NCBI GenBank assembly: GCA_007119615.1
Contig: SKPH01000001.1
Span: 1 to 59,120 of the forward strand
Direction: 5' to 3'
Source of the DNA: Syntrophomonadaceae bacterium
GTDB lineage: Bacteria; Bacillota; Dethiobacteria; DTU022
DNA: 59,120 bases
A program made the translations under genes and the position numbers. The stretch's first letter is position 1; every line of letters starts with the position of its first letter. Positions 1,922 through 57,225 of this stretch are shown one piece after another. Below the pieces are notes generated by a model that saw nothing but the letters and a program-made list of their open reading frames with translations, did no database searches and was not told the origin of the DNA.

Positions 1922-2683
1922 ATGCCGAGGACAGCGCGAAGAAAAAGCGAGACCGACATCTACCATATTATGATCAGAGGTATCAATCGGCAGAATATAT
2001 TTGTAGACGATGAAGACAATAAAAGGTTAATCGACACGCTTGCCAGATACCGGCGAGAAGTTGAATATGAACTATATGCCTACTGTTTGATGGGCAATCA
2101 TCTTCATTTGTTAATCAAGGAAGGGAATGAAGCGCTGTCAAATACCATGCGGCGAATTGGGGCTAGTTATGTTTACTGGTATAACTGGCAGTATGACAGA
2201 AAAGGGCACTTGTTCCAGGACCGCTTTAAAAGTGAACCAGTTGAAGAGGACTCCTATTTTCTCACAGTTTTAAGATACATCCATCAGAATCCGCTAAAAG
2301 CAGGAATAACTAATAATATTGAGCATTATAAATGGAGTAGCTATCAGGAATACATAAAGGAAGCGCAGATCGTTGCTGTAGATTTTGTCCTGGCTATGTT
2401 TGCTGAGAATAGGGATACAGCGATTGAAGAGTTTAGAGACTTTAATCTTGCTGTAAACAATGACCAATGTCTGGATATTACTCCGGAAAAGAAAACTATG
2501 TCCGACAAAATAATCAGGCAGCAGGTGTCGGATAAATACAAACTAGAGTTAGCATCACTACATAGTGAAGGATTAGAAACCCAGGCTGAAGTTTTAAAAT
2601 ATCTCAAGGGGTTGGATGGGATTTCACTGAGGCAGTTGTCCAGATTAACCGGGTTTACAGTAAGTAGGATTTACAAAGCTTAG
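1922..2683 (+). CDS. REP-associated / IS200-like tyrosine (Y1, HUH) transposase with a C-terminal helix-turn-helix region
   Basis: An HUH motif in GNHLHLLIKEG and a catalytic-Tyr region LRYIHQNPLKAG. The ~250-aa length is typical of the IS200-like 'transposase and inactivated derivatives' family. The C-terminus (LRQLSRLTGFTVSRIYKA) looks HTH-like. Confidence 0.8.
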   Translation: MPRTARRKSETDIYHIMIRGINRQNIFVDDEDNKRLIDTLARYRREVEYELYAYCLMGNHLHLLIKEGNEALSNTMRRIGASYVYWYNWQYDRKGHLFQDRFKSEPVEEDSYFLTVLRYIHQNPLKAGITNNIEHYKWSSYQEYIKEAQIVAVDFVLAMFAENRDTAIEEFRDFNLAVNNDQCLDITPEKKTMSDKIIRQQVSDKYKLELASLHSEGLETQAEVLKYLKGLDGISLRQLSRLTGFTVSRIYKA

Positions 2684-2688
2684 AACAG

Positions 2689-2808
2689 AGAACCGTCCCC
2701 TGTTTCCCCGCCCTTTTCCGAACAGAGAACCGTCCCTTGTTTCCGCCCCGTCCCTTGTTTCCGCCCGTCCCCTGTTTCCGAGAACCGTCCCCTGTTTCCG
2801 CCTGTTTG
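2689..2808 (+). repeat. degenerate tandem array (about 5 units) of a 17-20-bp REP-like unit, (AGAA)CCGTCCCYTGTTTCCG
   Basis: Units read by eye at about 2689-2709, 2725-2745, 2746-2763, 2764-2780 and 2781-2800, plus a partial CCTGTTTG at 2801-2808. Confidence 0.8.
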
Positions 2809-2874
2809 AAAAAGGGAATCCCTTTAGAACTGTTGAATAAATACCCAGAGAACCTCATTCACCTGCGAAACTTC

Positions 2875-4074
2875 ATGAATAAAACAACCCGATCAACAAC
2901 TGCCACCACTTTTAGAGGAGATGCGATCTTGATAGTTCGAAAAAAATTTGCGATTTCTGTTTTGATTTTTGGGTTATTTTTGATTGTATATGCCCCACTA
3001 CAGGCAGAAGCGGCCATGGTTTTAACGGAAGACAATATATCCATCGGCCAGGAGGAGTTGATCGATGACGATCTCTATCTTTTTGGCGATACTGTGGTGA
3101 TCAGTGGTTCAGTTTTGGGAGACGCTGTAATTTTTGCCCGTGATGTTGTGATTGATGGATCAATAGAAGGCAGCCTGCTGGCCTTTTCCCAGGCAGTGAG
3201 AATTTCCGGGACTGTAGATGGTTCGATACGCGGAGCTTCCAACACAGTTTTCTTAACCGGTTCGACCGGTAGAGACCTGATGATGGCAGCGAATATGATC
3301 GATGTCAGCGGGATAATTAATCAGGACTATCTGGCAGCAGCCAGATCGAGCACTGTTACCGGTTCTGTGGGTAGGAATATCAGGGCAACGATGAACCGCT
3401 TTGAAGTCGATGCGCCGGTTGGCGGTGATATCTTTACCGTTGTCAGCGAGTTTTCATTCGGTCCCCGGGCGGTGGTTGAAGGTAATGTAAGCTATATTTC
3501 GCGGGAAGATGCAGAAGTCGACCAGCAGGCAGTGATTATCGGAAATATTGAAAGATCAGATCCCCCGGTAGATGAACGGGCAGTAGAACCCTGGCGCAGG
3601 GTTTGGAGGTTCATTCGCCCGATCCTTTCCCTGATGTTCCTGGCATTACTCATGGCTTTAATCTTTCCCGGCCTCACGGTTGGAACAGCCGGAACGATCA
3701 AGGAACAACCCCTTCTGAGCCTGGGGGTAGGAGCGCTCTTTATTTTTGTCTGGCCCTTCATTGCAGTGTTCCTGCTGCTTACCGTCATCGGCATACCGGC
3801 AGGCATCACCTCTATGCTGCTTTATGCAGCCCTTCTATATATCAGCAGGGTTTTCGCCGGCTATTTCCTGGCTGACTTAATATTTGGCCGGAATAAAAAT
3901 ATCCATCCGGTATGGGTTGCCTTAACCGGAGCGCTTATTCTGACTTTGCTGATTAAAATACCATATATTGGATGGGCGGTTAATCTGGCAGCTGTTTGGT
4001 TCGCTTCAGGAGCATTTTTTGTCTACCTGAAAACCGGCACTGAAAAAGAAAAATATAGATCTGAATCAGAATAA
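2875..4074 (+). CDS. membrane protein: N-terminal signal/anchor, bactofilin-like beta-helical repeat region, C-terminal multi-TM domain
   Basis: The ORF track starts at 2737, inside the repeat array, so ATG 2875 (MNKTTRS...) is preferred. It precedes a hydrophobic anchor (FAISVLIFGLFLIVYAPLQAEA). Repeated G-x-V-x-G-S/D-hydrophobic segments follow, then about 5 TM helices. Confidence 0.6.
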   Translation: MNKTTRSTTATTFRGDAILIVRKKFAISVLIFGLFLIVYAPLQAEAAMVLTEDNISIGQEELIDDDLYLFGDTVVISGSVLGDAVIFARDVVIDGSIEGSLLAFSQAVRISGTVDGSIRGASNTVFLTGSTGRDLMMAANMIDVSGIINQDYLAAARSSTVTGSVGRNIRATMNRFEVDAPVGGDIFTVVSEFSFGPRAVVEGNVSYISREDAEVDQQAVIIGNIERSDPPVDERAVEPWRRVWRFIRPILSLMFLALLMALIFPGLTVGTAGTIKEQPLLSLGVGALFIFVWPFIAVFLLLTVIGIPAGITSMLLYAALLYISRVFAGYFLADLIFGRNKNIHPVWVALTGALILTLLIKIPYIGWAVNLAAVWFASGAFFVYLKTGTEKEKYRSESE

Positions 4075-7648: not shown

Positions 7649-10216
7649 CTAGGGTCCCATGGAAACCACCAGCCGGACCTCGCGACCTCTTGCTACGATT
7701 GATCCGGGGGCGGGCGATTGACCGATAACTCTGCCAATTTGAACGTCGCTGCTGTGTCGTTGCTCCACCTGGCCGACTTTGAGACCTGCCTGTGTAATTT
7801 TTAGTTCGGCTATAGCTTGGAATGAGCCGATAACATTCGGGACCTGGACAGGATCTCCGGGAGCAGGGGGTGCCCCGTTTCGCTCTCGGACGGGCTGCCC
7901 GAAAAGGCTGAATCCCGTATCTTCATCTTCACCTAACAGCATTTCTCCGGCATCCTGCGGCCCCCTGCCCGGGCCCCCCCTGGGTGATTCCCAGCGGTGG
8001 TCAGTTACGATAAAAGGAGGCCTCCTATAACCATCTTCCAGGTGCATATTACAAGCCCCGGAAGGAGCCTGATCTGCTATGAAGTAATCGCTGATAACAG
8101 TTCCTGCTTCCTGACAAAATTCAGTAGGCCGCAGACCCGACCTGCTGCACACCGATAGCCTGACAATCCCTTCCGGTTGTTCAAATTCTTCGATCTCCAG
8201 GGTCTCGAATGCTTCCAGGAATACTTCGCGCAAAAAAGCGGTTGAGTAACGCCAGCCTTGTTCAATCGCACCCATCCTCGGTTCATCGTAACCCATCCAG
8301 AAAGAGGCGACCAGGTTTGGTGTATAGGCAACCAGGTATACATCTCTCCAATCATCGGTTGTGCCGGTTTTAGCGGCCACCGGGCGATCAATTTGCAAAG
8401 CCCGGCCCAGGTAACCGGTTACAAAACCCTGCAGGATATCGTTGATCAGAAACGCAGATTGCGGACTTAAAATCTGTTCCGGTTCTGCCTCGTACTCATA
8501 AATAATATTTCCCCTGCTATCAACGATTTTTTCGATGGTATGCAGGTCAACCTTCTGTCCCTGGTTGGCAAAAACTCCGTAAGCCTGGGCCATGTCGATA
8601 GCGCTTACCCCGCGGGTAAAGCCGCCCAGGGTCAGGCTTAAGTTTTCTTTCTCCTGGGGAACCATCGTTGATATACCCATTCTTTCCGCGTATCCGGCGC
8701 CAACTTCGGGGCCGAGAACTTCGAAGGCGCGAACTGCCGGTACATTATAAGAATAAATAAGCGCTCTTCGCACCGGGATCATTCCCCGGAAGGCGTAGTC
8801 AAAGTTTTCCGGAAACCAGTCCTCCCGCGGTCCGATATAAGGGGAGTCATCAAGGGTTGAACCGGCGCCCGCCAGGGTTCCCTCTTCGAAGGCAGGACCA
8901 TAAGTTATTACCGGCTTGATTGCCGAACCGGGCTGGCGCAGGGAACTGAAGCGCAGCACTTCGTCCACATTCTTACGATATTCACGGCCCCCGCCCAGAG
9001 CTTTGATTTGACCGGTAGCCGGATCGGCAACAACAATTGCCGCCTGGGGTTGCGGGACGCCTTCTTCATCGATAAGTTCCTGCAATTGGGCCTGCGATAG
9101 ATCATCGTCGGGAGGGAGACCCGATATTGCTTCCCTGACCCTGGTTATATCTACGTATACAGTAGAAGGATAAAGTTCGGTCCGTCCGAGAACATCCTGC
9201 ACATGGATTTGCATCGTCGGCTCCAGGGTGGTGTAGACACGTAAGCCACCGGTATAGATAGCCTGGTATGCTTCAGCTGGGGAGTCAATGGATAGGCTTG
9301 AACTGATAACCCTAATTAATTCATTGTGGATTACGTAGTCGATAAAGTGAGGATAAGGATACTCGGGGCTGCGTAACTCGGCATAATTGAACTGTTGGTT
9401 AAGGGCCTGCCTGTATTGAGACTCTGAAATAAATTCAAGCCTCGCCATGTTCATCAACACCATACGCATCCGGTCTTCCGCTGCGGATCTATTGTCGATA
9501 GGGTTGTAGTAATTAGGTGAACGCACCGCCCCGGCCAGCATTGCCGCTTCTGCTACTCTTAATTCACCGGCACTCTTTCCGAAATAGGTTTGCGCCGCAG
9601 CTTCCACTCCGTAGGCTGTGTTGCCAAAGTAAATCCTGTTTAGATACATTTCCATGATTTCTTCTTTGCTGTATTCATCCTCAAGTTGAATAGCCAGCCA
9701 GATCTCCTGCACTTTACGTTCATAGGTGGTCTCTGTGGTTAAAAATGCGTTTTGGGCCAACTGTTGGGAAATGGTGCTTGCTCCCTGTACAATGGCTCCG
9801 GCCCGAAAATTAATATAGGCCGCCCGGATGCTGCCGATAATATCAAAACCAAAATGCTGGTAGAAACGTTCATCTTCAATCGCGATAAAGGCCTGCTGAA
9901 CATGCAGGGGTATCTCTTCCAAACTGATTTCAATCCGGTGTTGATCATCGTGCAGGGGAGTAATTTCTTCACCGTTGCTGTCATAGATATAAGATGTTTC
10001 TACTGTTTCCAGACGCGATGGGTCGAGGGGTGGAGCCTCATTAATATAGCCGACCACTACTGACGCAGCAGCGCCGCCGGCAACAAGAAACATCAGAAAT
10101 AAAACTAGGATAGCAATTTTGATTGCACGGAGCTTTTTGGATGGTTTTTTTTTGGTTTTTTTTAATTGATGGTCCTTTTTTTCAATTGGAACTTTAGGAG
10201 CCTTTTTTTTCGCCAA
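7649..10216 (-). CDS. class A penicillin-binding protein (PBP1A-type transglycosylase/transpeptidase) with a C-terminal PASTA domain
   Basis: GT51 motifs AIEDERFYQHFGFD and GASTISQQLAQN. Transpeptidase motifs SAIKP (SxxK), YSYN (SxN) and KTGT. C-terminal PASTA-like VPNVIGSFQAIAELKITQAGLKVG...VRLVVSMGP. TTG start with AAGGAG upstream. Confidence 0.9.
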   Translation of the reverse strand: MAKKKAPKVPIEKKDHQLKKTKKKPSKKLRAIKIAILVLFLMFLVAGGAAASVVVGYINEAPPLDPSRLETVETSYIYDSNGEEITPLHDDQHRIEISLEEIPLHVQQAFIAIEDERFYQHFGFDIIGSIRAAYINFRAGAIVQGASTISQQLAQNAFLTTETTYERKVQEIWLAIQLEDEYSKEEIMEMYLNRIYFGNTAYGVEAAAQTYFGKSAGELRVAEAAMLAGAVRSPNYYNPIDNRSAAEDRMRMVLMNMARLEFISESQYRQALNQQFNYAELRSPEYPYPHFIDYVIHNELIRVISSSLSIDSPAEAYQAIYTGGLRVYTTLEPTMQIHVQDVLGRTELYPSTVYVDITRVREAISGLPPDDDLSQAQLQELIDEEGVPQPQAAIVVADPATGQIKALGGGREYRKNVDEVLRFSSLRQPGSAIKPVITYGPAFEEGTLAGAGSTLDDSPYIGPREDWFPENFDYAFRGMIPVRRALIYSYNVPAVRAFEVLGPEVGAGYAERMGISTMVPQEKENLSLTLGGFTRGVSAIDMAQAYGVFANQGQKVDLHTIEKIVDSRGNIIYEYEAEPEQILSPQSAFLINDILQGFVTGYLGRALQIDRPVAAKTGTTDDWRDVYLVAYTPNLVASFWMGYDEPRMGAIEQGWRYSTAFLREVFLEAFETLEIEEFEQPEGIVRLSVCSRSGLRPTEFCQEAGTVISDYFIADQAPSGACNMHLEDGYRRPPFIVTDHRWESPRGGPGRGPQDAGEMLLGEDEDTGFSLFGQPVRERNGAPPAPGDPVQVPNVIGSFQAIAELKITQAGLKVGQVEQRHSSDVQIGRVIGQSPAPGSIVARGREVRLVVSMGP

Positions 10217-15135: not shown

Positions 15136-15293
15136 TTGTTGGTTGATGATTACTGAAAGAGGTCCTGCCGCTATAGGTGCACTATTTCGGCATGGCCTCT
15201 TCTTTGTTGCCCAATTATAATGGATCAATCGGGCCGGCAACTTATCCAACTGCTTCATTAGCTATTAATATTGCCATCTGCGGGCGGATTCAT

Positions 15294-15353
15294 TCTAAAG
15301 GATTAATCCATATTTTACTCTTTTTTCACCTTGCTTCCATGCTTTTAAGTGAT
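15294..15353 (+). promoter_or_regulatory. copy C (diverged) of the conserved upstream element, 101 nt before bamB
   Basis: TTTTACTCTTTTTTCACCTTGCTTCCATGCTTTTAAGTGAT aligns with copy A, TTTCACTCTTTTTAACCTTGATTCCATGCTTTTTAGGGAT. The 5' box is weak (TCTAAAGGATTAATCC). Confidence 0.5.
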
Positions 15354-15454
15354 TCTTTTATTAAGAAATTCCTGTAAACTGGTAAAGTAGAGGTAGTCTG
15401 ACAGGAGCAGGCAGCAATGTTTGAGGTTAATTTATAGCTAAGAGGTGTTGAAAA

Positions 15455-22401: not shown

Positions 22402-23169
22402 ATGAGTGCCGGAACAACATTTAAGCCAAAAGTTATCGGCTTTGTATGCCAGTGGTGAGGATACGGAGCTGCTGACCTGGCTGGAGTTTCCAGACTACAA
22501 TATACAACTGAAATCAGGCTTATTCGCGTCATGTGCACCGGTAGAATTGACCTCGCACATGTAATCAGGGCTTTTACAAACGGAACCGATGGTGTGTTTA
22601 TCGGTGGATGCAGATTGAATGAATGTAATTATATAACTCACGGAAATTTTTATGCTTTGAATATGGTTCTTCTTTGTAAAAAAATGATGGAACATATTGG
22701 GATAAATCCAGAGAGATTAAGGATCGAGTTCATGTCATCCGGTGAAGGGAACCTGTTTGCCGAGGTCGTCGATCATTTCGTTAAGACAGTAAAGGATATT
22801 GGTCCTCTCGGCAAAAGCGAAGGACTTGATGAAAATGGGTTAAAAGTAAATCTTGAAGCAATAACCGGTTTAATCCCCTATATCAGGCTGGTAGAAAGCG
22901 AGAGATTAAAAGGGCATTTTACTACACTGGAGGAATATCAAGAATTTTACTCCAGTGTGGAGTTTGACAGGCTATTTAAAGAGCTGATCGCAGACAAACT
23001 GGCGATCAGCAGGATTATCTTACTCTTACGGGAAAAAGCCCTCTCTACAGGAGAAATTTCTGAGGTTTTAGGTTTATCCCCCTCAGAAATATCCAAGCAC
23101 CTGAGTAACTCGGCAAAGCTTGGTTTGGTCAGGTATGATGAAAGCCGGAAACGTTTTGCTTCAGTTTAA
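22402..23169 (+). CDS. bamF: BamF, MvhD-like subunit; selenoprotein with in-frame UGA at 22456-22458; C-terminal winged-helix-like tail
   Basis: ATG 22402 follows GGGAGG and is in frame with ORF 22531-23169. It translates as MSAGTTFKPKVIGFVCQW-U-GYGAADLAGVSRLQY..., the MvhD CxWC-x-Y-x-GAD-x-AG signature with Sec in place of the second Cys. Confidence 0.8.
22456..22493 (+). other. UGA(Sec) codon plus candidate SECIS hairpin in bamF
   Basis: TGA at 22456-22458. The hairpin CTGGAGTTTCCAG (22481-22493) has a 5-bp stem and a GUU loop. It begins 22 nt after the UGA. Confidence 0.45.
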
Positions 23170-37209: not shown

Positions 37210-37944
37210 TTATTCATGATCGGAATCTCTATGGCCTGTCTTGCCGAAATCCGTATTCTCAATTACGAATAAGCTCTCCGAGCTGTTCCGGCTTAATTTC
37301 ATTGCCAGGGAAATTGCCTGGGTTCTGTTTTTAACCTGAAGCTTTTGATAAATATTGCGCAGGTGGGTCTTGACCGTGTCGACTGCCAGATTGGTAGCCG
37401 CGGATATTTCTTTATTGGTCAACCCTTTGACTAATTGTCTGAGTATTTCCTGTTCCCTCGGAGTCAGCTCAACCCGCTTTTCTTCTTTATCCAGAGGTTT
37501 TATCTCGGTAAGTTTTTTGCTCAGCCGTGTATAGTCGTTAACGATCTGGCGAAAAACAGACTGGTCTATAATAGTTTCTCCACTATGAACTCTTTTGATT
37601 GTGTCTATAAGATTTTGTCTGCTGACATGTTTGAGGATATAGCCGGAAGCCCCGGACTGCAGGGCCAATCGGATCGATTCGGTATCTTCAAAAATTGTTA
37701 AGAAGATCACTTTGATTTCCGGTTTTTGGGCCAGGATCTGCTTTGCAGTTTCAATCCCGTTGACACCCTCCATATTGATATCCATTAAAATGATATCAGG
37801 TTCGGCAGAATGAGCTTTCTCAAGAGCTTCTGAGCTATTCCCTGCGCTGGCAACAATGGTAATTTCTTCGATGTTTTCAAGCATATTGGACAACCCTTCC
37901 CGAACCATGGGATGATCATCGACTATGAGAATCTTTATGGCCAC
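37210..37944 (-). CDS. NarL/LuxR-family response regulator (REC plus HTH_LuxR)
   Basis: ILIVDDHPMVREGL ... DIILMDINMEGVNGIE. The HTH is LTPREQEILRQLVKGLTNKEISAATNLAVDTVKTHLRNIYQKLQV. A tail of about 35 aa follows the HTH. Confidence 0.9.
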   Translation of the reverse strand: MAIKILIVDDHPMVREGLSNMLENIEEITIVASAGNSSEALEKAHSAEPDIILMDINMEGVNGIETAKQILAQKPEIKVIFLTIFEDTESIRLALQSGASGYILKHVSRQNLIDTIKRVHSGETIIDQSVFRQIVNDYTRLSKKLTEIKPLDKEEKRVELTPREQEILRQLVKGLTNKEISAATNLAVDTVKTHLRNIYQKLQVKNRTQAISLAMKLSRNSSESLFVIENTDFGKTGHRDSDHE

Positions 37945-37968: not shown

Positions 37969-39645
37969 TTATATCGGTATGGTTACGCTGATCCGTGTTC
38001 CTTCACCGGGTCGGGAATCAATTCTGCAGGCGCCTCCCAACAGCAGGGCTCGTTCCTGAATGCTGGCCAGGCCCAGGCGATTGTGAAGTTGCGGAGTATC
38101 GGCAGGTTCCGTATTTATTCCGGACCCGTTGTCTTCCACGGAAAGATTCACCTCATGGTCCTGAATATCAAGGCAGACTTTGACTTTGGTCGCGCTGGAG
38201 TGCTTTATTACATTTGTCAGCGCTTCCTGCAGGATCCTGAATAAAGCAACTTCTATATTCGAAGCCAATCTCTGATTTTCCCCATTAACCTTAAGTTCGA
38301 TAGGAAGATTATTCTTTTCGGAAATGTCAAAAACGTGAGTTTCAACAGCTGGAATCAACCCGTAATTGTCCAGAATAATCGGGCGCAGGTCGTACAGAAT
38401 ACGCCTTACTTCCTGGATTTGCTCACTTAATACATTCGTGATATCGGTGATTTCAGAATGCCATTTTTGCGATTCGGCCTTTTCGGCAGATGAGATTCGC
38501 TGTAGTCGGTACCAGATGGCTATCAGGGATTGGATTATGCCGTCATGCAGATCGGAAGCCAAACGCTTGCGCTCATCTTCCTGTGCTGTAGTCAGTTTAT
38601 CCACCAGCTGGTGCAGCAGTTGTTCTTTTTGGCCAAGTTTTTCGATTAAAGCCGCATTTTCCATGGCAACCGCGGTGGCGCGGGCAATGGCGAAAATAAT
38701 TTCTATTTCCTCGCTGTCGAAGCCGCCTGACTCCAGAGGCCGATCCAGCTGCATAATGCCGATGGTTTTTCCTTTACTAAGAATTGGGACCAGCAAAACC
38801 CAGCTGTATGCAAAATCCTCTATAATCTCCCTGGGGAGCATCCTGGATATGTTCTCCGGGGTTATCACTACCGGTTGCTCTGTTTTTATAGCCCGTTTGA
38901 TACCCGGGAAAAGTCTTGCGCCTTTTAAGGCTTTAAATTTTTTTTTCAATTCGGGATCATAACTTCCCACAGCGACTGCCGGAATCAGGGTCTGATCTAT
39001 CTCGTTCAGTAGGTATATACAGTTTTTTGCTGAAAAGAGGTCTGCTGTTAGCTGAGTAACGACATGAAGAACCTGTCTTAGATCTAAAGTGGAGCTGATG
39101 GTGTTAACTAACTCCAGCCAGACGGCAAGCTTTCTCAGGTGGCGATCTTTTTGTCTCCGGAAGAGTGACTCCTGGATGATGTCGGCCATATGGCGGCCCA
39201 AAGAGACTGCTTTGGCCAGCATATACTGCCCGCTCCGGTAGTCGGTGTTGAAGATACCGATTTCCATCGTACCGACAGGATCTCCGGCCTTTAAAAGGAC
39301 CGGAAAAGTGGTAGAAATGACTGGGGAAAGGGGCTCCAGCAACTTTTTCTTCTGCAGGTTTTCTTCATCAGACAGGTAATCTTTTAATTGAGAACATCTT
39401 TCCAGATGAGCGGTACCACCGGTATCCGCTTCTTCCCCGTTTTTTGAAGCATGCCAGCATACCACATCTTTGTCATCTCGAACCAGCATCAGGCTGGCCT
39501 GCCCGAAATCAAAATAGTCAACAGAAGTTTGCAGGGTATTTTGCAGGGAGGTTTTTACCTGCTTAATTGTTGTAAAGCCGGAGCTAACACGGCAGATCAA
39601 AATCAGTTCCGGCCTGGCCTTTGGGTCAGGTATGTGCTTTAGCAA
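37969..39645 (-). CDS. cytoplasmic sensor histidine kinase: GAF-like N-terminal sensory region, then HisKA_3 and HATPase_c
   Basis: No TM segments. H-box EDERKRLASDLHDGIIQSL, N-box EALTNVIKHS and G-box VEDNGSGI. TTG start after GGGTGG. Confidence 0.85.
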   Translation of the reverse strand: MLKHIPDPKARPELILICRVSSGFTTIKQVKTSLQNTLQTSVDYFDFGQASLMLVRDDKDVVCWHASKNGEEADTGGTAHLERCSQLKDYLSDEENLQKKKLLEPLSPVISTTFPVLLKAGDPVGTMEIGIFNTDYRSGQYMLAKAVSLGRHMADIIQESLFRRQKDRHLRKLAVWLELVNTISSTLDLRQVLHVVTQLTADLFSAKNCIYLLNEIDQTLIPAVAVGSYDPELKKKFKALKGARLFPGIKRAIKTEQPVVITPENISRMLPREIIEDFAYSWVLLVPILSKGKTIGIMQLDRPLESGGFDSEEIEIIFAIARATAVAMENAALIEKLGQKEQLLHQLVDKLTTAQEDERKRLASDLHDGIIQSLIAIWYRLQRISSAEKAESQKWHSEITDITNVLSEQIQEVRRILYDLRPIILDNYGLIPAVETHVFDISEKNNLPIELKVNGENQRLASNIEVALFRILQEALTNVIKHSSATKVKVCLDIQDHEVNLSVEDNGSGINTEPADTPQLHNRLGLASIQERALLLGGACRIDSRPGEGTRISVTIPI

Positions 39646-39695: not shown

Positions 39696-39724
39696 ATTTT
39701 ACCAGTTTCTTTCAGAAACGTCAA
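39696..39724 (-). promoter_or_regulatory. candidate sigma-70 promoter of the kinase/regulator operon
   Basis: On the minus strand: TTGACG (39724-39719), a 17-nt spacer, then TAAAAT (39701-39696). It lies about 50 nt upstream of the TTG start at 39645. Confidence 0.45.
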
Positions 39725-39749
39725 CTTTGGGCATTACGAAAGTGCTCAT

Positions 39750-39808
39750 CCGAAGGTGTTAGCTCCCATTTCACTCTTTTTAACCTTGATTCCATGCTTT
39801 TTAGGGAT
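39750..39808 (+). promoter_or_regulatory. copy A of the conserved ~60-nt upstream element
   Basis: CCGAAGGTGTTAGCTCCCATTTCACTCTTTTTAACCTTGATTCCATGCTTTTTAGGGAT. It lies 192 nt upstream of the ATG at 40001 and is near-identical to copy B. Confidence 0.8.
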
Positions 39809-40000
39809 TTTATTATTGTCTGTCTTTGTTTAATATTTAGTTAATGGACTTGCACCCGGAGATAATTCTTTCAGCAAAATCCGGAGTGATGAAGTGGGTG
39901 CTTTTAAAGCCGGGAGTTTGGAGCAGGTTAAGTTATGTTTGCGTTTCAACCTGCATTTTTTGTCTTTCGAAAATGATCAAGCTGCCGGAGGGTGGGTGCG

Positions 40001-54524: not shown

Positions 54525-54582
54525 TGCAGGTGGTAACCCTTTTATCACTCTTCTGATGAAAAAATCCCTCTTTTAGGTGATA
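54525..54582 (+). promoter_or_regulatory. copy D of the conserved upstream element, 94 nt before the second hbd-like gene
   Basis: TGCAGGTGGTAACCCTTTTATCACTCTTCTGATGAAAAAATCCCTCTTTTAGGTGATA. About 20 of its first 28 positions match copy B by eye, and the 3' box is CTCTTTTAGGTGAT. Confidence 0.55.
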
Positions 54583-54676
54583 GCAAAATTTAATCATATT
54601 TTATAATATTAAGTCAATGATGAAAAATCTTTATCTTCTGCGTGATCATTTTTTAATTTGAAGGGGGTAATAAACG

Positions 54677-56883: not shown

Positions 56884-56979
56884 AATTTGTTTCGAATCTC
56901 CCGGTTATCTTCGATCTGTACGCCGGGGAACGCGGTCGTGATTTCTGCCAACCGCCTTCATGAATACCAGGGTGTTCAA

Positions 56980-57039
56980 CCGAAGGTGTTAGCTCTGTTT
57001 TCACCCTTTATTACTCTCGATTCCATGCTTTTAAGGGAT
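56980..57039 (+). promoter_or_regulatory. copy B of the conserved ~60-nt upstream element
   Basis: CCGAAGGTGTTAGCTCTGTTTTCACCCTTTATTACTCTCGATTCCATGCTTTTAAGGGAT. It lies 186 nt upstream of the ATG at 57226. Confidence 0.8.
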
Positions 57040-57225
57040 ACTCTTACAGGCTGATTTTGATTAAGCTTATAGTAAGCAGAATTGTATGCCCGGCCGATCC
57101 TTATACATTAATCCGGGCTGTGTGGAAAAGGGATTTGATATTGTGTGAAGAACTATTAAACAACTCTTTTTACGATTAATTTAAATGTCGCATTAGGATG
57201 ATTTGTGTTGGAGGAGGATGGGTAA

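Follow-up and report, generated by a model that had tools for sequence, protein, structure and literature searches.

A Conserved Upstream Element of Benzoyl-CoA Pathway Operons in Bacillota: A Candidate Regulon Promoter Associated With a Two-Component System

Genes and Upstream Elements of the Locus

In the window (the whole stretch of DNA analyzed here, 59,120 nt long), copies of a conserved intergenic element precede three operons, whose contents were assigned with Pfam and NCBIfam. The first encodes a methyltransferase, an SDR protein, a thiolase and an amidohydrolase (copy A, 39741–39839), the second a DUF35 protein and the 6-oxocyclohex-1-ene-1-carbonyl-CoA hydrolase BamA/Oah (TIGR03200, 584 bits; copy B, 56971–57071), and the third begins with a BamB-like gene of the AFOR family followed by genes for BamC-I-like electron-transfer subunits (copy C, 15285–15388). 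All three copies are on the plus strand, in promoter position. Divergently from copy A, the minus strand encodes a soluble sensor histidine kinase (37969–39645) and a response regulator of the NarL/LuxR family (37210–37944).

Elsewhere in the window, a gene for an IS200-like Y1 transposase (253 aa) precedes an ORF of 445 aa that has no Pfam match (1922–4074); they may represent an element of the IS200/IS605 type at the edge of the catabolic island. Inside the bamB-I cluster, the protein in the BamF position (22531–23169) combines an MvhD/FlpD domain with a C-terminal match to the ArsR-type HTH_5 family (E = 4e-8), an unusual pairing.

The original prediction described two near-identical elements of about 60 nt, at 39750–39808 and 56980–57039, and re-reading of the window returned exactly the letters first quoted. 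The details given for this pair also hold: the first 16 nt and GATTCCATGCTTTT are the same in both copies, a 1-nt indel separates them, and the first start codon follows at 192 nt (copy A) and 186 nt (copy B). Both copies are thus real, but the similarity is longer than 60 nt (~39741–39839 and ~56971–57071), and the flanks, described as unrelated, are so only in part, as the similarity continues for ~30 nt further in the 3' direction, up to a predicted -10 box. In a BLASTN comparison of copy A with the window, copy B was matched with 78.5% identity over 93 nt (E = 2.5e-16), the alignable region being ~93–125 nt long, and nhmmer gave E-values of 1e-36 to 1e-41 for the two copies. Their resemblance is far beyond chance.

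The number of copies was also underestimated, since the window contains a third and possibly a degenerate fourth. Copy C, whose similarity to the others extends over ~15285–15382 and which is located 101 nt upstream of the bamB-like gene, was matched by copy A at 15312–15362 (84% identity over 51 nt, E = 8e-10) and by nhmmer with E = 7e-7 for a two-copy profile and 1e-19 for the family profile. The possible fourth copy (54526–54606, plus strand) is located upstream of an operon encoding a 3-hydroxyacyl-CoA dehydrogenase (3HCDH) and a PaaK-like ligase, and its match (E = 0.11) covers the box I part only. It reads GGTGGTAACCCTTTTATCACTCTT ... CTCTTTTAGGTGAT, followed after 20 nt, rather than 22 nt, by TATAAT, and retains, besides CTCTTTTAGGTGAT, the box I-like GGTGGTAACCCTTTTATCAC. 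BLASTN of copy A against the window revealed no copy beyond these three, perhaps four, on either strand.

Distribution of the Element Across Genomes

Scanning of 185,579 species genomes with the pattern YGNTTCCATGCTTTTWAGNGAT returned 47 loci. The whole element of ~100 nt is present in 38 of them (nhmmer 58–90 bits), while the other nine match the pattern only (15–20 bits), close to the chance expectation. The extended copies come from ~22 MAGs labelled Dethiobacteria, Syntrophomonadaceae, Bacillota or Peptococcaceae, plus two labelled Desulfovibrio, and all 38 reside in loci of the Bacillota type. Every copy with downstream sequence is located 60–330 nt upstream of a benzoyl-CoA pathway operon and has the same orientation. 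These operons are of the types (MTase)/SDR/thiolase/amidohydrolase (type A), DUF35-bamA-dch-had (type B), bamB-bamC and following genes (type C) and ECH/had/.../bamA (type D). The original prediction had named random placement, or a lack of conservation in related genomes, as evidence that would count against it; the genome scan that it proposed instead yielded 38 more copies, all of those with downstream sequence being co-oriented with a pathway operon. The element is 75–95% identical across copies, and the flanks cannot be aligned. The window itself matches a contig of a soda-lake-type MAG (GCA_007124665.1).

The near-invariance of TTCCATGCTTTTWAGnGAT in the 38 scan copies is partly built in, as the same pattern was used for finding them. 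To avoid selecting on the element, ten loci were picked by orthology of the kinase alone (45–56% identity). Eight of the ten have diverged copies that adjoin benzoyl-CoA operons, and in these copies the block relaxes to TTyCAynCTTTnnnGCGAT. Diverged copies were found in the isolate Desulfotomaculum copahuensis (L052; LYVF01000069, ~9828–9904, minus strand, with GGCGAT-22-TATAAT), in a Moorellales MAG (L053) and in loci L056 and L057, two copies each in L055, L060 and L061, and in L058 a copy with a triplicated box module. They stand ahead of operons for a class-I-type reductase (HGD-D and BcrAD), bamB, or SDR/thiolase/bamA, and they keep (G/A)GCGAT or GTGAT followed, after 22 nt, by TATAAT, TACAAT or TATCAT, the sole exception being a relic copy in L060 (GCGAT-22-TATGCG). 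No copy was found in L054, a locus with no aromatic genes at all. Locus L059 has benzoyl-CoA genes and no detectable copy, only a box-I-like AAAGAATTAGCT.

In the Desulfotomaculum-like loci L052, L056, L057 and L061, the kinase/regulator pair and the element occur at an operon with HGD-D and BcrAD/BadFG, coding for an ATP-dependent reductase of the class I type and not for BamB. The presence of the element at such operons indicates that the regulatory module either predates the type of reductase or does not depend on it.

Lineage-specific variants are common to the copies of one genome, such as AGTTAACAC in both JAUSPO copies and TGTTAGCTC in copies A and B of the window. Two variable core positions (C..C versus A/T..G) are likewise the same within a genome, and identity between operon types within a genome is 0.83, versus 0.80 for the same operon type between genomes. 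Such lineage-tracking variants would fit sites that follow a co-evolving trans-acting factor.

Two same-orientation copies occur 1.25 kb apart on one MAG contig (L010, 3219–3316 and 1968–2067, minus strand), the upstream one with a mutated core (CTACTTCCATACTTTTGGGTGAT). Loci L014, L037, L051 and L061 come from MAGs labelled Desulfovibrio, Desulfovibrionaceae or Spirochaetia, yet their genes and element are typical of the Bacillota group, which suggests mis-binning or recent transfer.

Promoter Architecture

A TAnnnT hexamer is located exactly 22 nt past the conserved ...AAGsGAT in 42 of the 44 copies. Eleven different hexamers occur at this position, all with T1, A2 and T6, and the near-consensus forms TATAAT, TACAAT and TATCAT are those of the copies that had been retrieved without the search pattern. 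In copy A the predicted -10 hexamer is TAATAT (39831–39836), 22 nt past ...GGGAT, and in copy B it is TAAGCT (57062–57067) at the family-wide offset of 22, with TATAGT (57068–57073, offset 28) as an alternative candidate. The two exceptions to the spacing are copy C and the copy in L015, with TG-TAAACT at 21 nt. In both of these bamB promoters (15360–15388 in the window) a 7-nt insertion (TAAACTG) creates two candidate -10 boxes: the TG-preceded TAAACT at 21 nt (15375–15380 in copy C) and, past the insertion, TAAAGT at 29 nt (15383–15388). In the window (57061–57070) and in the copies of the soda-lake clade, the -10 region forms a perfect 10-bp palindrome, TTAAGCTTAA. The motif TTAAGC occurs both here and in the upstream boxes, and the palindrome could serve as an additional binding site that overlaps the -10 box.

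No -35-like hexamer is present 16–18 nt upstream of the TAnnnT box, a position usually occupied by a T-run or unrelated sequence, and a promoter scan found no sigma-70-type pair on the plus strand at copies A, B or C. For the divergent kinase/regulator operon it did detect a canonical pair, on the minus strand (39696–39724; TTGACG, 17 nt, TG-n-TAAAAT), indicating that this lineage uses standard sigma-A promoters. The -35 hexamer of this divergent promoter also accounts for the "GTCAA" box upstream of all A-type copies. The element had been said to match no recognizable promoter class; its -10 box calls for a revision of this statement, the best reading being that of a promoter lacking a -35 element. 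The TTGmTT motif was considered as a -35 element and rejected, being 39 nt from the -10 box and thus too far away. By-eye comparison with the consensus sequences of sigma-D, sigma-B and sigma-54 promoters gave no fit, and the GG-N10-GC (-24/-12) signature of sigma-54 is not in the element consensus.

All promoter coordinates assume that TAnnnT occupies positions -12 to -7, the start site and the box positions being derived from this one predicted -10 hexamer. With this assumption, transcription from copy A is predicted to start at ~39843, giving a 5'UTR of ~150 nt, and the conserved block extends over ~65 bp, from ~-100 to -35. It comprises three TTAA-centred units spaced by about two helical turns, near -83.5, -61.5 and -41.5 relative to the predicted start. 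In copy A they are box I, a dyad at 39754–39767 with its TTAG centre at 39760.5 (~-82.5), box II (TTAA, 39780–39783, -61.5) and box III (TTTA, 39800–39803, -41.5); the conserved block TTCCATGCTTTTTAGGGAT occupies 39790–39808. Copy B has box I at 56984–56997 (centre 56990.5, ~-83.5) and box III (TTAA) at 57031–57034. Box I of copy C is a perfect dyad, AAGGATTAATCC, inside 15298–15311.

The dyad originally noticed in the 5' box is real, as the relatives show AAGGGTTAACCCTT or AAGGATTAATCCTT in this distal unit. Self-comparison of the PWM revealed the dyad GGGTTAACCC centred at -83.5 (-87 to -80), direct repeats TTAACCCTTATTTCAC and TTAACCTTGCTTCCAT 22 bp apart, and direct repeats CACTCTTTTTTAACC and CATGCTTTTAAGG 20–22 bp apart. 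Units II and III are only half-site-like, without clear dyad symmetry. These proximal units are the most conserved part of the element (TTTTAACCTTGmTTCCATGCTTTTAAGsGAT), above the palindromic box I, and part of this block may be due to a second factor or to direct contacts with the polymerase. It seems distinctly improbable, in our judgment, that the near-invariant stretch from -75 to -35 is a recognition module of its own, serving a second benzoyl-CoA-responsive factor or an unusual holoenzyme contact, and not a set of secondary regulator sites. If it were, it would define a new composite promoter class for anaerobic aromatic degradation across several classes of Bacillota, and the GAF kinase would be the first sensor of the benzoyl-CoA type in Gram-positive anaerobes.

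Upstream of the bamB-like gene in L058 (2698–2870, minus strand), three tandem repeats of the box module GTTAATCC-N-TCATCCAAGTTTyACCTAG precede the usual ...CATGCTTTTAAGTGAT-22-TATAAT. This triplication suggests that the box module may be a self-contained binding unit open to multiplication.

RNA Structure, Coding Potential and Mobility

A 5'-leader RNA was among the functions first proposed, and a cis-acting RNA (leader, riboswitch, or binding site for an sRNA or protein) could act either in a long 5'UTR or in read-through transcripts. The element is strictly strand-specific and located 100–250 nt upstream of start codons, as such an RNA would be. In B-type loci the ligase gene upstream has its stop codon ~5 nt ahead of the copy and no terminator intervenes, so that the element would be included in read-through transcripts. 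The folding analyses speak against this explanation. RNAalifold predicted 0 base pairs on either strand for 32 non-identical copies, the z-scores of single-sequence folding (+1.8 to -1.2) were no better than those of shuffles, and the first 70 nt of the predicted 5'UTRs had a mean folding z of -0.15. Rfam gave no match at the gathering score across the window and, at a permissive E-value around copy A, chance-level matches only (E > 2). In register, the box I dyad shows complementarity in 73% of cells, versus 35–59% in slid registers, and its covariation is not above that of column shuffles (222–252 of 500 shuffles); a complementary yet non-covarying dyad is, at the level of sequence, the signature of a conserved palindromic protein site and not of a helix. 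In addition, the invariant -10 box is located downstream of the element, which would thus probably not be transcribed from its own promoter, and the A-type copies abut the -35 hexamer of the divergent promoter, leaving no room for an upstream promoter on the same strand. A role as RNA is therefore given very little credence here.

Two structures suggested by individual copies were also rejected. A GCTT..AAGC or CCTT..AAGG hairpin with a T-run could resemble a terminator; the positions that covary in it (TTGmTT with AAGsGAT) do not form Watson-Crick pairs and track lineage, and no terminator was called. A long-range stem GGGTG...CACCC around box I shifts its register between clades and is absent from the RNAalifold result.

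The presence of several copies per genome, and the local duplication of the element in L010 or its box module in L058, could point to a dispersed repeat, to a MITE- or REP-like remnant of a mobile element or, in the conserved core, to a short ORF. Against a repeat, only three or four copies occur in 59 kb, each at the place of a promoter and in the orientation of its operon. Orthologous positions are kept across genera, and neither terminal inverted repeats nor target duplications were seen. As for coding, the original prediction held that the element is non-coding, and this is borne out by 1-nt indels inside the conserved core that break the frame between copy families, by the varying stop positions of the candidate frames, and by the lack of a Shine-Dalgarno sequence ahead of either candidate ATG. 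The two frames picked out by eye, MLL(R/S)D... on the plus strand and ME.RLK...LTP.DE (~24 aa) on the minus strand, are both broken by such indels and have no ribosome-binding site. An origin as repeat or ORF is effectively refuted.

The Adjacent Two-Component System

The kinase comprises an N-terminal region of ~185 aa, a GAF domain, HisKA_3 and HATPase_c, with no transmembrane segment. The regulator consists of a receiver domain and a GerE helix-turn-helix and is the candidate activator. The best matches of the kinase core among proteins of solved structure are VraS and DesK, and those of the regulator are VraR, NarL and DesR, with DevR among the nearest (E = 7.5e-32). Neither protein reached an NCBIfam equivalog cut-off, which indicates that the pair is not orthologous to any named system. 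The orthologue group of the kinase is discrete, extending from 100% down to 45% identity, with a gap thereafter to 30%.

The pair is divergent from an A-type copy in 17 of the 18 loci with upstream sequence. This conserved divergent synteny, together with the co-occurrence of pair and element, makes the adjacent LuxR/NarL-type regulator, one of the two binding proteins originally suggested, the best candidate. The other, PadR, shows no link to the element, and its gene (94–489) is located 39 kb away, beside an ArsP-type permease. The element is thus probably switched on by the adjoining two-component regulator.

Relative to the start predicted for the kinase promoter, box I is located at ~-71.5, which makes autoregulation of the pair possible. 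In L060 the kinase gene and a sigma-54 activator gene are separated by 130 nt, and this interval contains a copy (9863–9951, minus strand) that faces the 3' end of a convergent gene and combines intact boxes with a decayed -10 box (TATGCG). This relic may be kept for kinase autoregulation, an idea with which it is compatible.

The same promoter region might have another reader. This could be an unlinked activator or repressor that responds to benzoyl-CoA, or else an alternative sigma factor recognizing the block TTCCATGCTTTTAAGsGAT. The stretch from -75 to -35 is more informative than typical secondary sites of NarL-family regulators and shows no clear dyad symmetry. Within one genome, box I of copy C (GATTAATCC) is unlike that of copies A and B (TGTTAGCTC), which counts against a single regulator, as one protein would have to bind both versions. 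Moreover, L059 contains the kinase/regulator pair and bam genes without the full element, and sigma-54 activators are encoded nearby in L059 and L060. An alternative sigma factor of the sigma-70 family is nevertheless difficult to reconcile with the spacing, as the 22 nt that separate the block from the -10 box are too many for a -35 element. A sigma-54-dependent mechanism would require the GG-N10-GC signature missing from the consensus, and the adjacent regulator comprises no domains other than receiver and GerE. Across loci, no regulator besides the kinase/regulator pair is syntenic with the element, the PadR of the window being distant and unrelated. We consider such another reader unlikely, and the adjoining NarL-type regulator is retained below as the putative binding protein.

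Comparison With Known Regulatory Systems

The closest parallel in promoter layout is provided by DevR/DosR, whose promoters contain a minimum of two tandem boxes, a dyad primary site with weaker neighbours in helical phase, at -42.5 and -63.5 (PMC3177182). Up to ~80 bp are protected in these promoters, binding is cooperative, the -35 element is suboptimal, and some of them are divergent (PMC3177182; PMC13486717). In the cryo-EM structure of the DevR activation complex the proximal box is at ~-43.5 (PMC13486717). The geometry of the element appears to mirror this arrangement, although here it is read from sequence, with a predicted start site. The protein pair is likewise similar to DevS/DosT-DevR of Mycobacterium tuberculosis in comprising a soluble GAF-containing HisKA_3 kinase and a NarL-family regulator. 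The differences are also clear: the box sequence (AAGGGTTAACCCTT) is unrelated in detail, the hosts are Bacillota, the regulon serves aromatic catabolism rather than dormancy, conservation is higher in the proximal units than in the dyad, unlike in the secondary sites of DevR, and the kinase has one recognizable GAF domain and, in contrast to DevS/DosT, no evidence of haem.

NarX/NarL, DesK/DesR and VraS/VraR (LiaS/LiaR) belong to the same protein families and are HisKA_3 two-component systems. Regulators of the NarL, DesR and VraR type use multiple adjacent sites upstream of or overlapping the -35 region, as DesR does on the des promoter. NarX, DesK and VraS are membrane sensors, whereas the kinase described here is soluble and contains a GAF domain.

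The described regulators of the benzoyl-CoA pathway, BzdR, BadR/BadM, BamVW and BgeR, all come from Proteobacteria or Geobacter, and BamVW of Geobacter is a two-component system encoded beside the bam genes (PMC6678401). The system proposed here would have the same role as BzdR/PN of Azoarcus, BadR/BadM of Rhodopseudomonas and BamVW/BgeR of Geobacter, i.e., pathway-specific control of bzd, bad or bam operons. BzdR, BadM and BgeR are one-component repressors, and BamW is a sigma-54-dependent activator. Unlike BamW, the regulator in the window has a GerE helix-turn-helix and no AAA+ domain. For the benzoyl-CoA pathway in Bacillota, a literature search retrieved neither a regulator nor a promoter motif, and nothing on this regulation in Gram-positive, spore-forming or soda-lake anaerobes. 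As judged from its sequence, the element is not part of any named regulon, and its box sequence is its own.

Proposed Mechanism and Significance

The strand specificity of the element and its position ahead of catabolic operons support one of the functions first suggested for it, that of an operator or upstream activating sequence of an aromatic-catabolism regulon. Most likely, it is a common control region, consisting of regulator boxes and a -10 box, ahead of each operon of anaerobic aromatic degradation in this group. The DNA-level architecture is probably that of a shared, activator-dependent sigma-A promoter, extending from ~-100 to -7, of the benzoyl-CoA regulon in Dethiobacteria-, Desulfotomaculia- and Moorellia-like Bacillota.

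In the proposed mechanism, the soluble GAF/HisKA_3 kinase would sense an intracellular signal of aromatic-acid catabolism, for which benzoyl-CoA or a related thioester is a guess, and phosphorylate the NarL-type regulator. Dimers of the latter would first bind the box I dyad and then spread cooperatively onto the phased proximal units. The unit at ~-41.5 could stand in for the missing -35 contact and recruit RNA polymerase (the sigma-A holoenzyme), so that the regulator would act by activation rather than repression.

The element is ordinary in kind, a regulon promoter with activator boxes, and is useful to specialists rather than surprising. It provides a sequence signature that marks members of the regulon in MAGs, covering operons of both class-I-type and class II benzoyl-CoA reductases, ring-hydrolysis genes and lower-pathway genes, and it comes with a concrete candidate sensor/regulator pair. 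The prediction is testable in a cultured organism that carries the element, Desulfotomaculum copahuensis. For anaerobic Bacillota, the element would offer a compact inducible promoter and sensor module.
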